Source: Minisyncoccota bacterium
GTDB taxonomy: Bacteria; Patescibacteriota; Minisyncoccia; Phycocordibacterales; UBA9973
Length of the DNA stretch: 64,000 nt
Direction: 5' to 3'
Assembly: GCA_018062065.1 (NCBI GenBank)
Contig: JAGOSX010000001.1
Location: forward strand, 31,070-95,069
In this document: positions 30,617 to 34,393 of the stretch, piece by piece
How positions within the stretch are numbered: the stretch's first letter is position 1
Layout of the letters: the number at the start of each line of letters is the position of its first letter
Notes under the pieces: model-generated
Databases searched by the model: none
Told to the model about the DNA's origin: nothing
What the model saw: the letters and a program-made list of their open reading frames with translations, nothing else
Translations under genes and position numbers: made by a program

Positions 30617-30685
30617 TTATATATTATAACATTAAATTCTTGATTTTTAAATATATTTAAGGTATATTTTAATAGTTATATTTAT

Positions 30686-30706
30686 GCGCTCGTAGTTCAG
30701 TTGTAG
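30686..30706 (+). pseudogene. tRNA-Lys 5' fragment (gcgctcgtagttcagttgtag) duplicated 65 nt upstream of the intact tRNA-Lys; not foldable into a tRNA
   Basis: 19 of 21 nt identical to the 5' end of the tRNA at 30751. The downstream sequence (cggtttcaactgaaac) forms an unrelated hairpin, with no anticodon or T-arm. Confidence 0.35.
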
Positions 30707-30750
30707 CGGTTTCAACTGAAACATACAGCAAAAGTAATAAAATTATTTAT

Positions 30751-30823
30751 GCGCTCGTAGCTCAGTCGGTAGAGCAGCTCCCTTTTAAGGAGATGGTCGA
30801 AGGTTCGATTCCTTCCGAGCGCA
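30751..30823 (+). tRNA. tRNA-Lys (anticodon TTT)
   Basis: I folded it by hand. The acceptor stem is gcgctcg/cgagcgc, the D-arm is tagctcagtcggtagagc, the anticodon loop is cuUUUaa, the T-arm is gaaggttcgattccttc, and the discriminator is A. No encoded CCA. Confidence 0.85.
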
Positions 30824-30913
30824 CATTTCAAAAATCAAGACACTTTGATTTTTTCTCAATTTTGTGCTAGTATTGTAACGAAATAAATTAAATAACGATT
30901 AAAATTTTTTCTT

Positions 30914-31468
30914 ATGAAAAAAATTATATTTTTGTTCTTTGCAACTTTTTTTTGTTTTCCAATTTTTTCTCAAACTTTAGCTTCGGCTGAAGAGACAGAA
31001 AAAACAGAAGAAAAAATTGAACCGTCTCATCATAATGATGAGTTAGGTTTGCACTTCAATGTATTTTTCGGATTAAGTGGAACTAAATCCAATTCCGAAA
31101 AAGATTTGAAAATATTAGGTGGGGCTGATATGTATTTACTTTTCACTAAAACATATCATTATTTTACATTTGACTTGGTCAATAATGAAATATCTTCTAC
31201 TAATGGTTATAAGTGGAATGATAATTTAGGTTCTTATGTTTTTGTTAGCTATGGCTTAAATAAAATACACGAACTTGAATTTGAAAATTCATTTCACGAA
31301 AAAACATTATCTTTGGGAATTGAATATTTTTTCTCTCTTAAAGAAAAAGAACCTTTAGAGGTAATTCTTTTTACTGAATTAGGTAAAGGATTTGCTCAGA
31401 AGAATGAAACTTTTTTCGGACTCGGCATAATAGCCGAATTAGATTTAAAAAAAATATTAAAAAAATAA
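30914..31468 (+). CDS. Secreted hypothetical protein
   Basis: 184 aa. The signal peptide is MKKIIFLFFATFFCFPIFSQTLASA. Confidence 0.4.
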   Translation: MKKIIFLFFATFFCFPIFSQTLASAEETEKTEEKIEPSHHNDELGLHFNVFFGLSGTKSNSEKDLKILGGADMYLLFTKTYHYFTFDLVNNEISSTNGYKWNDNLGSYVFVSYGLNKIHELEFENSFHEKTLSLGIEYFFSLKEKEPLEVILFTELGKGFAQKNETFFGLGIIAELDLKKILKK

Positions 31469-31563: not shown

Positions 31564-33717
31564 ATGAGCGAGAAAGTCTTTAAATTAAAAAGTAAATTTG
31601 AGCCTGCGGGAGATCAACCGAAGGCTATTTTAGAATTAAATGAAGGACTTAAAAAAGGCTTAAAAAAGCAGACTTTACTCGGAGCGACAGGGACCGGTAA
31701 GACTTTTACGATGGCTAACGTGATTTTAGAATATAATAAGCCGACTTTAGTCATAGCTCACAACAAAACCCTAGCCGCTCAACTCGCTACCGAGTTCAAA
31801 GAATTTTTCCCAGATGCTGCAGTGCATTATTTCGTTTCATATTATGATTATTATCAACCGGAAGCTTATATGCCGGCGTCAGATACTTTTATTGAAAAAG
31901 ATGCTCAGATAAATAAAGAAATAGATAGGCTTCGTCACGCTACAACTCAAGCATTACTCACTCGTAAAGACGTTATTATAGTCGCATCGGTATCTTGTAT
32001 TTACGGCTTAGGAAGCCCTGAAGAATACGAGAAAACTAATTTAAAATTAAATATCGGTACCAAATTAGATCGGGCAAGCTTAATGAAAAGATTAATCAGT
32101 ATGCATTTTGAGAGGACTAATGCAGATTTATCTTCTGGAAATTTTAGAGTTGTTGGACCGAAAATAGATTTGATGCCTGTTTCTGAAACCTTTATGTATT
32201 CTATCGAATTTTCAGGTACAGCTATTTCTCGGATTTTAAAAATTGATCCAGTATCTTCGACCATTTTAAAAGAATATTCCAAAGACGATACTGAAAGTAT
32301 TTATATTTTCCCAGCTAAACATTTTATAACCGAAGATGAAAAAACAAAAGTTGCAATTAAAAATATTGAAAAAGAATTAAAAACTCAAATCAAGAAATTT
32401 GAAAAAGAAGGCAAGCTTCTTGAAGCTGAAAGAATTAAAAGACGTACGAATTACGATCTCGCTATGATTAGGGAAGTTGGATATTGCTCTGGTATTGAAA
32501 ATTATTCTCGTCATTTATCAGGTAAAGCTGAAGGAGAAGCCCCGGAAACTTTACTGTCGTATTTTCCTCATAAAAAATTAAGAAATCCTGAAGAGAATGT
32601 CCCAGATTTCTTGACGATTATTGATGAATCGCACCAAACTTTACCTCAAATTCGAGGTATGTTTGCAGGGGATAAATCTCGTAAAACTACTTTAGTGGAA
32701 TACGGTTTTCGTTTACCTAGCGCGAAAGATAATCGCCCTCTTCGTTATGAAGAATTTGAAAGTAGAATTGGCGAAGTGGTTTACGTTTCTGCTACTCCAG
32801 GAGATGAAGAGCGAGAAAAAAGCGAAAAAATAGTTGAGCAAATTATTCGTCCTACAGGTTTACTTGATCCTGAAATATTAGTAAAACCAGTTACTGCTGA
32901 TAAAGATAAACTTGGACAAATTCAAGATTTTATTAAAGAAACCGAATTTACAATCAAAAGAGGTTTTAGAGTATTAGCTACAACTTTGACTAAAAAGATG
33001 GCTGAAGATTTAACTTCTTATCTTAAAGATAAAAGTATTAAAGCAGAATACTTGCATTCTGATGTAAAGACTTTGGATAGAATAAAAATAATTACAGAAT
33101 TTCGTAAGGGTAAATTTGATGTATTAGTCGGAGTGAACTTGCTTCGTGAAGGTTTAGATTTACCGGAAGTAGCGTTAATCGGTATTTTAGATGCAGATAA
33201 AGAAGGTTTTCTTCGTAGTGAAACAGCGTTAATCCAAATCATCGGACGCGCCGCTCGTAATAGTGAAGGTAGAGTTATTCTTTATGCAGATAGAATTACC
33301 GACTCTTTAGAAAATGCTATCAAAGAAACTACTCGTCGTCGCAATATTCAAATAGCTTATAACAAAAAATACGGAATTACTCCGAAAACTATTCTGAAAA
33401 ACATCAAAGATATTACCGAAGATATGGAGTCTAATCATAGTCGAGCGGTAAATGCAGAGCTTGATCTTGATTTAAACCTTTTTAAAACTGCTTATAAAAA
33501 AGAATTAAAGAAAGACGGAAGTAAAATTACTCGTGAAAAAGGGAAAATAGAAGTTAAACTTAAAATGTCTGATGATGAAAGGAAAGATTTAGTTTATGAA
33601 AAAATAATTAAAATTAAAGAACGCGAAATGAATAAAGCTGTCAAAGAACTCGATTTTGAAACTGCTGCAATACTAAGAGATGAGATAGGAGTACTAAAAG
33701 CTCGGCTAGAAAAATAA
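31564..33717 (+). CDS. uvrB: Excinuclease ABC subunit B
   Basis: Start set at the ATG at 31564 (MSEKVF...). The TTG at 31546 is unlikely because it overlaps the extended -10 TGTGCTATATTAT. Walker A is GATGTGKT and there is a helicase C domain. The C-terminal UvrB/UvrC interaction domain (...ILRDEIGVLKARLEK) is present. Confidence 0.95.
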   Translation: MSEKVFKLKSKFEPAGDQPKAILELNEGLKKGLKKQTLLGATGTGKTFTMANVILEYNKPTLVIAHNKTLAAQLATEFKEFFPDAAVHYFVSYYDYYQPEAYMPASDTFIEKDAQINKEIDRLRHATTQALLTRKDVIIVASVSCIYGLGSPEEYEKTNLKLNIGTKLDRASLMKRLISMHFERTNADLSSGNFRVVGPKIDLMPVSETFMYSIEFSGTAISRILKIDPVSSTILKEYSKDDTESIYIFPAKHFITEDEKTKVAIKNIEKELKTQIKKFEKEGKLLEAERIKRRTNYDLAMIREVGYCSGIENYSRHLSGKAEGEAPETLLSYFPHKKLRNPEENVPDFLTIIDESHQTLPQIRGMFAGDKSRKTTLVEYGFRLPSAKDNRPLRYEEFESRIGEVVYVSATPGDEEREKSEKIVEQIIRPTGLLDPEILVKPVTADKDKLGQIQDFIKETEFTIKRGFRVLATTLTKKMAEDLTSYLKDKSIKAEYLHSDVKTLDRIKIITEFRKGKFDVLVGVNLLREGLDLPEVALIGILDADKEGFLRSETALIQIIGRAARNSEGRVILYADRITDSLENAIKETTRRRNIQIAYNKKYGITPKTILKNIKDITEDMESNHSRAVNAELDLDLNLFKTAYKKELKKDGSKITREKGKIEVKLKMSDDERKDLVYEKIIKIKEREMNKAVKELDFETAAILRDEIGVLKARLEK
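33578..33717 (+). repeat. Direct repeat 1 (uvrB 3' end, ~140 bp); its diverged partner is at 35381-35521
   Basis: Aligned by eye, ~85% nt identity overall and ~92% over the first 110 bp. The encoded peptides are nearly identical (KAVKELDFETAAILRDEIGVLKARLEK vs RAVKELDFETAAILRDEIGVLRVRMEK). Confidence 0.7.
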
Positions 33718-33760
33718 ACTTTACTGTTTACTAAGGTTTATGCTATAATACTATTACCGA

Positions 33761-33803
33761 CGCCGAAAGGCGATAACGACCCCTTTATAGCAATATAAAG
33801 GGG
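33761..33803 (+). promoter_or_regulatory. Structured 5' leader of the MazF-like toxin gene with two GNRA-tetraloop hairpins: cgcc-gaaa-ggcg (33761-33772) and cccctttata-gcaa-tataaagggg (33780-33803). The second sequesters the Shine-Dalgarno AAAGGGGAG
   Basis: Read directly. The second hairpin is a 10-bp perfect stem. The purine-rich SD is its 3' arm, 17 nt before the ATG at 33821. A TGCTATAAT -10 lies at 33741-33749. Confidence 0.35.
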
Positions 33804-33820
33804 AGCGTAAATTAAATACA

Positions 33821-34213
33821 ATGTATATTAAAGAATTTGATACTTGGAATTCTATTAAAAAAGAAGTAAATGAGAAAGAAAAACCTCACAAGGTTCGTGT
33901 TAGAGAACTTCGCTGGGGTTCTTTAGGAGTAAATATTGGAAGTGAAATAGATGGAAAGGGAGCTACCTTTACAAGACCTTTGATTATTCTTTCTTTAGCT
34001 GGACCAGATTTAGCTCTTGTTGTTCCTTGTTCTACAAAATTGCACGATAGGCCTGGGTATATAAAAATTCAATTAAAAAATAAAGAAGTTAGTGCTTGTA
34101 TTCATCAAATAAAAATTATTTCTACTAAAAGAATTTATGATAGAATCCAAAAAATTTCTCAAGAACAAATAAATAATTTGAAAAATCAAATTAAAGATTT
34201 TTATAGATTATAA
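33821..34213 (+). CDS. MazF/PemK-family-like endoribonuclease toxin (orphan: no intact cognate antitoxin adjacent)
   Basis: 130 aa. LRWGSLGVNIGSEIDGKGATFTRPLIILS and ALVVPCSTKLHDRPGYIKI parallel the MazF/Kid conserved segments (RPxLVxS ... VVPxTS...). It lies inside an inserted island. Confidence 0.55.
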   Translation: MYIKEFDTWNSIKKEVNEKEKPHKVRVRELRWGSLGVNIGSEIDGKGATFTRPLIILSLAGPDLALVVPCSTKLHDRPGYIKIQLKNKEVSACIHQIKIISTKRIYDRIQKISQEQINNLKNQIKDFYRL

Positions 34214-34217
34214 ATAT

Positions 34218-34301
34218 ATGAAAACTTTAGAACAATTTAAAAAACAAGCTTTAAAAAGGGAAGGAGTTAAAAAAGCTTATAAAATACTAAAAAATAACTA
34301 A
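34218..34301 (+). pseudogene. 27-codon ORF MKTLEQFKKQALKREGVKKAYKILKNN*, resembling the N-terminus of XRE/HigA-type antitoxins; probably a truncated remnant
   Basis: It starts 4 nt after the toxin stop. N-termini of HTH_XRE antitoxins commonly read M..(F/L)(D/E)E(F/L)(K/L).E.LKDPEFKAEY. Here it stops after 27 aa, before any HTH. Confidence 0.2.
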
Positions 34302-34393
34302 GGGACTTGGGTTGGAAATCCTAGAAAAATAAGATTGCTATTTTAATAAAACTATGATATAATAAAAATATTGATACATGTAGCCTTTGTTAT

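Follow-up and report, generated by a model that had tools for sequence, protein, structure and literature searches.

MazF toxins are textbook members of toxin-antitoxin systems of type II, a class defined by its protein antitoxin. We examined a 64,000-nucleotide (nt) stretch of DNA from a Minisyncoccota bacterium (contig JAGOSX010000001.1, positions 31,070 to 95,069; the whole stretch is called the window below), in which a gene for a MazF/PemK-fold endoribonuclease of 130 amino acids (33821-34213, plus strand) has no antitoxin gene beside it and is preceded by two RNA hairpins. As judged by comparison with related loci, these hairpins are one copy of a conserved 5'-terminal RNA motif of about 55 nt that is specific to one clade of MazF-like genes, upstream of which it stands in about 80 loci. 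We propose that promoter, structured 5' leader and nuclease gene would together form a compact, horizontally moved unit without a protein antitoxin. Within this unit, the leader RNA may be the control partner of the toxin, either as a bound decoy, comparable to a type III antitoxin, or as an autoregulatory substrate. We give this reading a probability of roughly 0.45, that is, slightly less than even odds.

A solo MazF-family gene and its conserved leader

An earlier note on this DNA had called the open reading frame (ORF) at 33821-34213 a MazF-like toxin, and family membership, predicted fold and active-site residues all agree with that assignment. The ORF matches the Pfam family PemK_toxin (PF02452) at 34.0 bits (cut-off 23.1, E = 3.8e-8) and, over its full length, PHROG 9567, 'MazF-like growth inhibitor' (E = 2.4e-17). 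An AlphaFold2 (AF2) model of the protein (predicted local distance difference test, pLDDT, 83; predicted template-modelling score, pTM, 0.73) has the MazF fold, rather than that of a non-toxin protein: the top 50 structure matches in the PDB are all MazF, EndoA or MoxT, with template-modelling (TM) scores of 0.6-0.78. Among 26 family sequences, R52-P53 and P69 are invariant, and S71/T72 is conserved. Profile alignment to Bacillus subtilis MazF (4MDX) places R52 on the Arg of 'VRP' (VRPVLV) and S71 on the Thr of 'ITAQ' (AITAQ), which we take to be the catalytic residues (Arg25 and Thr48 in B. subtilis MazF; R29 and T52 in the Escherichia coli protein). From alignment and model, then, the ORF looks like an active MazF whose catalytic residues have been kept. 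The inactive toxin that the earlier note had allowed for is unlikely, because the active-site residues are conserved. Two features are additions of the clade: the N-terminus has a conserved helix (residues 1-23), and the first loop has an insertion of 5 residues. No defence-system model in PADLOC matches the toxin (0 families).

The absence of an intact antitoxin gene was likewise borne out. Searches with Pfam and NCBIfam found no antitoxin-type domain in the ORFs between uvrB and uvrA (33700-35860), and no recurrent protein neighbour appeared among 110 flanking ORFs of 80 relatives. A 27-codon ORF just downstream of the toxin gene (34218-34301, plus strand) had been read as the N-terminus of a truncated XRE/HigA antitoxin, and this we reject. 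The 27-amino-acid peptide has no match in Pfam, NCBIfam or the PDB (phmmer), and when it is aligned (tblastn) to a genuine XRE antitoxin, which one of the related loci encodes (L019; related loci and contigs are designated by such numbers), E is 7.8, a value also reached by dozens of random matches. The ORF is also missing downstream of relatives with 94%, 75% and 56% identity (downstream regions of L001-L012), and ORFs of at least 25 codons occur about once per 160 nt in the region. On this sequence evidence, it is probably a chance ORF outside the system, and we do not count it as a part.

The leader lies in the space between uvrB, which ends at 33717, and the toxin gene, which begins 104 nt further downstream. 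A promoter-like site on the plus strand (33720-33749) comprises the -35 box TTTACT, an 18-nt spacer and the extended -10 box TGcTATAAT (33741-33749), with 10 of 12 matches plus the TG, and the transcript is predicted to start at A33756. The conserved motif (33754-33814, plus strand) runs from a 5' ACCNN through hairpin P1, a 3-nt linker and hairpin P2 to an AAAU tail. P1 is CGCC-GAAA-GGCG (33761-33772, plus strand). In the predicted fold, P2 (33776-33808, plus strand) has a 10-bp stem closed by a GCAA loop, CCCCTTTATA-GCAA-TATAAAGGGG (33780-33803), which is extended beyond a small internal loop by a base of ACG and CGT (33776-78 and 33806-08). The AAAU tail and an unpaired A/U-rich spacer, with no Shine-Dalgarno (SD) sequence inside, fill the remaining distance to the ATG (33809-33820, plus strand). 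The leader is 65 nt long, and its minimum free energy (MFE) is -22.8 kcal/mol, compared with a shuffle mean of -10.6. Both hairpins, which the earlier note had drawn with GNRA loops, are real and beyond chance, because z is -4.59 and not one of 200 shuffles gives an equally good fold.

Scanning one genome for each species yielded 80 related loci, mostly from Patescibacteria and also from Bacteroidota, Gammaproteobacteria and Lentisphaeria. Of these, 43 have the leader (essentially the relatives above about 42% identity), and more distant relatives lack it. The genomic contexts are unrelated (for instance, after the reverse transcriptase of a diversity-generating retroelement [DGR], between malic-enzyme and Zip genes, or among transposases), and the -10 box precedes, at a constant distance of 6 nt, the conserved AC with which the motif begins. 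From this point, 6 nt after the -10 box, the consensus reads ACC(A/G)U-CGCC-GNNA-GGCG-UC(A/C)-P2-AAAU. The -10 box and the stop codon are the exact limits of the block conserved between cassettes. When the window is compared with L001 and L007, identity is 95-97% in the leader, 76-92% in the ORF, 57-81% at ORF third positions and 20-45% in the flanks; for L007 alone, the respective values are 95%, 76%, 57% and 20-42%. By these comparisons, the leader is under stronger constraint than the ORF.

The leaders of relatives are either near-identical or compensatorily changed, as in L011, whose P2 is CCCCCTAC-TTCG-GTAGGGGG. In 77 distinct sequences, the P1 stem is near-invariant (three of the four pairs never vary, and the fourth is U-G in two sequences), its loop is G-N-N-A with an invariant final A, and the AAAU tail is conserved in 63-72 sequences, depending on the column. 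All nine modelled pairs of P2 show compensatory changes: 92-95% of cells are paired, versus about 40% with the partners slid, and none of 500 shuffles reached the observed covariation score. RNAalifold independently predicted exactly both helices. G-U pairs in P2 number 50 and A-C pairs 20, most of the latter arising from the register of an internal-loop subfamily. Because G-U outnumber A-C pairs in this way, the alignment favours RNA of the sense strand as the conserved structure.

A covariance model of the motif (R1) scores the window leader at 52.7 bits (E = 2.7e-20), its sole match in the 64 kb. For a test from the RNA side, a DNA pattern for P1 and the linker was run across metagenomes, and the matches were then scored with the covariance model. 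The pattern matched 120 metagenome contigs, which the model split into 40 true loci (at least 33.6 bits) and 80 chance matches in GC-rich coding sequence (at most 26.5 bits). A MazF-like ORF lies downstream of the motif in 35 of the 40 true loci; the other five have a disrupted or different gene there. No true copy was found in the viral contigs of IMG/VR, where the 24 matches of two DNA patterns all lie inside coding sequence, fail the covariance model and are due to chance. Rfam 15, including the pemK model RF02913, gave no match at E up to 10 to the leaders of the window, L022 or L154, and none at gathering score in the loci of 20 relatives. Over the whole window, an Rfam 15 scan returned only tRNAs and one S-adenosylmethionine (SAM) riboswitch, all elsewhere. 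As a motif absent from Rfam 15, the leader is a candidate new structured-RNA family. A tRNA-like or riboswitch reading of the leader was set aside, ARAGORN and Rfam being negative.

What the leader may do

In the mechanism that we favour, the nuclease would recognise the leader RNA, with P1 as the fixed recognition element, and by binding or cutting it would limit either free toxin or toxin synthesis. The leader, encoded in cis, would then serve as an RNA antitoxin like those of type III or as an autoregulatory decoy. The part of the earlier note's post-transcriptional proposal that invoked RNA structure has thereby become much more plausible, the leader being conserved, covarying and tied to the clade. 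Variant loci show how the parts can be multiplied or separated. On the minus strand of L154 (9173-8380), three tandem leader units, each with P1 and a P2/U-run, lie downstream of a tRNA-Glu gene and ahead of a MazF-like ORF; all three P2 hairpins score as intrinsic terminators, and promoters were detected by the scanner in two of the three units, with a TTGACA read by eye upstream of the third. Such extra copies would be produced as free small RNAs ended by the P2 terminator. L115 has two leader units, and L044 has two complete copies of leader plus ORF. The leader has also been kept upstream of toxin genes with internal deletions or disruptions (L147, L181, L151 and L123), and on rare occasions it stands without a toxin gene, before unrelated genes (L106, before murC; L137; L187/L207). 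A wider claim would be that these loci make up a class of RNA-gated toxins, in which a genuine MazF nuclease is neutralised or gated by a two-hairpin RNA at the 5' end of its own transcript, and which spreads horizontally as a single-gene toxin-antitoxin or sentinel module, chiefly in Patescibacteria. We regard this claim as tentative and, on balance, doubtful.

Several observations weigh against the leader as control partner. Both the protein-RNA interaction and the direction of regulation are points that we infer. Since P1 never varies, its pairing receives no support from covariation, and the argument for it consists only of the GNNA-loop signature and the folding energy. Further, the window copy is a single unit, with no tandem repeats (Tandem Repeats Finder, 33500-33830) and no terminator-like site (33700-33830), so that leader and ORF occur 1:1 on one RNA, a poor stoichiometry for a classical RNA antitoxin. 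Analysis of k-mer depletion in 54 toxin ORFs, relative to synonymous shuffles, revealed no avoidance of a self-cleavage motif, only mild generic depletions. In addition, the leader-less relatives of the wider clade are without an antitoxin gene too, and this wider clade may tolerate having none.

Among the rival explanations, the one that survives best takes the leader for a generic expression element that has no contact with the toxin protein and sets a low, safe level of expression; it could stabilise the 5' end, work as an attenuator or terminator, or be a site of processing. The motif does begin within about 5 nt of the predicted 5' end, and both of its loops are stable tetraloops. A mere stabiliser or terminator, however, would not hold the 12 nt of P1, the linker and the AAAU near-invariant across phyla. 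Termination in particular is suggested by a U-run of at least five after P2 in about 13 of 79 distinct relatives, as well as by the scores of the three P2 hairpins in L154, but most copies, including that of the window, have no U-tract. Leader-bearing genes are autonomous, whereas many leader-less relatives lie inside host operons, which would fit an element that simply provides expression; yet the motif is nearly confined to one gene family (35 of the 40 metagenome loci). We consider a generic element unlikely, though still a serious contender.

A different possibility is that the conserved sequence acts as DNA, with P1 as a palindromic repressor operator just past the start site, or with the hairpins as sites at which a mobile single-gene cassette recombines. 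P1 does form an invariant inverted repeat (about +6 to +17); its loop, however, keeps G1 and A4, the GNNA signature of an RNA loop, and is not palindromic. P2 keeps its pairing and not its sequence, and its excess of G-U over A-C pairs (50 to 20) is a further argument for RNA. The sharp bounds of the conserved block (-10 box and stop codon) in unrelated contexts, the position of the window copy in an islet flanked by a 139-nt repeat, and the several cassettes that adjoin tRNA genes would all suit a mobile cassette, but no repressor or recombinase gene travels with it. Taken together, a role as DNA is quite improbable.

Much the same low probability attaches to the view that no control is needed at all, the clade being a low-toxicity or narrow-specificity RNase and the leader incidental. 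The strongest case for it comes from the wider clade, the whole of which is solo. Leader-less relatives are found in host operons (L057, L067, L069, L072, L080 and L241), some of them between pheS and pheT. In Lactococcus ileimucosae, type I restriction-modification genes flank one of them, and on a plasmid of Helicobacter suis one of them and a relaxase gene overlap. Against this view stand the invariance of the catalytic residues, the constraint on the leader, which is stronger than that on the ORF, and the disrupted toxin genes in about 10% of leader-bearing copies, as expected for a costly gene.

The earlier note had seen in hairpin 2 a locked SD, so that opening of the hairpin would gate translation of the toxin. 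This idea did not withstand a closer look at the locus. A sequestering hairpin would pair an SD 4-12 nt from the start in a conserved geometry, whereas the GGAG of the window (33802-33805) is 15 nt from the ATG, and the MFE structure leaves the start codon and the preceding 12 nt unpaired. Across the family, P2 combines a G-rich 3' arm (GGGG/GGAG/GAGG) with a C-rich 5' arm, but the G-run of relatives stops about 18-20 nt short of the ATG. Similarly, Magasanikiibacteria-type copies (L046 and L044) have a predicted pairing of a CCC linker with a downstream GGGGG SD, yet the distance from P2 to the ATG varies from 2 to 52 nt among relatives (mostly 12-16 nt, without an SD), and relatives' lineages that use SDs carry AAGGGGGG outside P2. 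The genome of the window offers little room for SDs in any case: GGAG, GAGG or AGGA precedes none of its 47 long ORFs (at least 150 amino acids), and 17 of the 47 have a TATAAT-like -10 hexamer that ends 5-8 nt ahead of the ATG, most often at 6-7 nt, compared with a background of 1.2% per position. Because of these hexamers, the genome, which appears SD-less, also appears to initiate largely on leaderless mRNAs, and against this background the MazF gene, with its 65-nt leader, is unusual. We accordingly hold SD sequestration to be very improbable. If instead the nuclease is gated by its leader RNA, as in the wider claim above, removal of the leader near the AAAU could, in an SD-less and largely leaderless genome, make the toxin mRNA translatable.

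The AAAU tail itself was tried as the -10 box of a leaderless toxin transcript. The geometry in the window fits (TAAATT, 7 nt, ATG), but the gap is 8-11 nt in most relatives and T6 is unconserved, and we keep this candidate as a minor possibility.

The other part of the earlier note's post-transcriptional proposal, an antisense RNA of a type I-like kind made from the opposite strand across the leader or start region, found no support and has a very slight chance of being the regulator. The only minus-strand promoter-like site, at 33876-33849, is weak: it has a 9/12 match of a kind found 13 times in the region versus 11.2 expected by chance, and it falls on non-conserved codons. As for the conserved structure, its G-U pairs favour the sense strand. 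Besides the weak site, a circumstance that might recall such control is the distant relative on pVir, a plasmid described as host of the type I pair CjrA/CjpT.

Relation to known systems

The type III toxin-antitoxin systems ToxIN, CptIN and TenpIN, for which class criteria are given in PMC3401426, resemble the locus in several ways. In both, an endoribonuclease toxin with a Kid/MazF-related fold has no protein antitoxin, and the same strand encodes, directly upstream, a structured RNA whose promoter looks constitutive. L154 adds to this likeness, with several RNA units and a terminator between RNA and toxin gene (the layout of PMC3401426), here on a true MazF. The differences are as follows: (i) the toxin is a member of the Pfam PemK/MazF family, and not ToxN/AbiQ, CptN or TenpN (0 families in PADLOC); (ii) the window has one RNA unit, with neither tandem repeats nor a terminator between RNA and toxin; (iii) the units of L154 each have their own promoter and are not one toxin-processed repeat array; and (iv) the RNA consists of two plain hairpins, and not of a known pseudoknot repeat. 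The arrangement works most like type III, yet in the window it departs from three of the criteria that define that class.

With the type II modules MazEF and PemIK (Kis-Kid), the locus has in common the toxin fold, the Pfam family and the positions of the catalytic Arg and Ser/Thr. It differs from them in having no upstream MazE/PemI-type gene and no recurrent neighbour, as well as in the extra N-terminal helix (residues 1-23) and the 5-residue insertion in the first loop of the protein. Because there is no antitoxin, the locus is not a type II module. Its protein adds a new member to a known family.

A conserved RNA upstream of PemK-family toxin genes, defined by bioinformatics and known as the pemK RNA motif (RF02913), has reportedly been described by Weinberg et al. 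2017. The concept is the same; the leader of the window, however, has no match to the RF02913 model and is found mainly in Patescibacteria. Firmicutes plasmid relatives, sought for an instance of the pemK motif, were not found.

RNA control of a toxin has a further parallel on pVir, for which a type I pair that has been validated, CjrA/CjpT, is reported (Shen et al. 2016, as given in PMC10470494 and PMC7826846). As summarised in these citing sources, CjrA/CjpT combines an RNA antitoxin with a non-membrane protein toxin, and pVir holds a solo relative of the window's toxin with about 35% identity, which is at most a candidate for CjpT. The antitoxin RNA of that pair is reported to be antisense, unlike the leader (PMC10470494). 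Distant relatives with 30-38% identity occur on Campylobacter plasmids, pVir of strain 81-176 included. The pVir ORF (L212; C. jejuni 81-176 pVir 30634-31038) is a solo PemK/MazF-family ORF, about 35% identical, with unannotated DNA of about 230 nt upstream and about 860 nt downstream. Its upstream region scores nothing with model R1, and no likeness to the leader was apparent by eye.

The leader, conserved with compensatory changes before this solo toxin, points to an RNA-based control of such a toxin that is as yet undescribed. What sets the clade apart is that its MazF genes have no antitoxin gene and do have a covarying RNA leader, one constrained more tightly than the protein. If the leader is indeed the control partner, RNA-based control, whether type III-like or cis-autoregulatory, would extend to the MazF family proper, in a directly testable system of about 470 bp. 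The motif also provides candidate-phyla bacteria, of whose regulatory RNAs little is known, with a candidate structured RNA family, and it would help explain how 'orphan' toxins can be carried safely and can move as single-gene cassettes.

The islet and other genomic surroundings

The toxin cassette of the window is carried in an islet of 1.8 kb (33717-35381) between uvrB and uvrA. The islet is bordered by two copies of a 139-nt direct repeat, 86% identical to each other: the left copy (33578-33716, plus strand) is the functional 3' end of uvrB, and the right copy (35382-35520, plus strand) is a leftover uvrB 3' end. The latter fragment is dead and still scores as a Pfam UVR domain. A 9-bp hairpin, CCGCTAGGC-AAG-GCCTAGCGG, lies at 35358-35378, at the left edge of the second repeat copy. 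No integrase was found in the 1.8-kb insert. Two contigs (L239 and L240) are 99% identical to this stretch.

The islet has a second gene (34394-35065), which encodes a conserved hypothetical protein of 208 amino acids, counted from the probable ATG at 34439, or of 223 amino acids from 34394. A promoter-like site for it lies at 34335-34363. The protein received no assignment from Pfam, PADLOC or PHROG and has 16 relatives in a large protein database. In a related contig (L237), its gene adjoins RNase H and ComEC genes, and not a toxin gene.

About nine of 60 leader-bearing cassettes lie 60-250 nt from a tRNA gene (L030, L037, L076, L154, L185, L158, L014, L034 and L140), a proximity that is consistent with insertion into tRNA-rich intergenic hot spots. 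The relative with 94% identity (L001-L006; gene 4001-4393 in L001) is situated 113 nt downstream of a DGR reverse transcriptase with a bAvd gene, and the link between toxin and DGR is probably one of position only. Finally, distant relatives from Saccharibacteria (L068, L071, L075, L078, L079, L081, L085, L086 and L088) have in common another conserved pattern in the 110 nt upstream, in which repeated ATTTTATC-like words come first and a TAGGAT-type -10 box, some 6 nt ahead of the ATG, comes next; such a pattern suggests a leaderless transcript with a possible operator.

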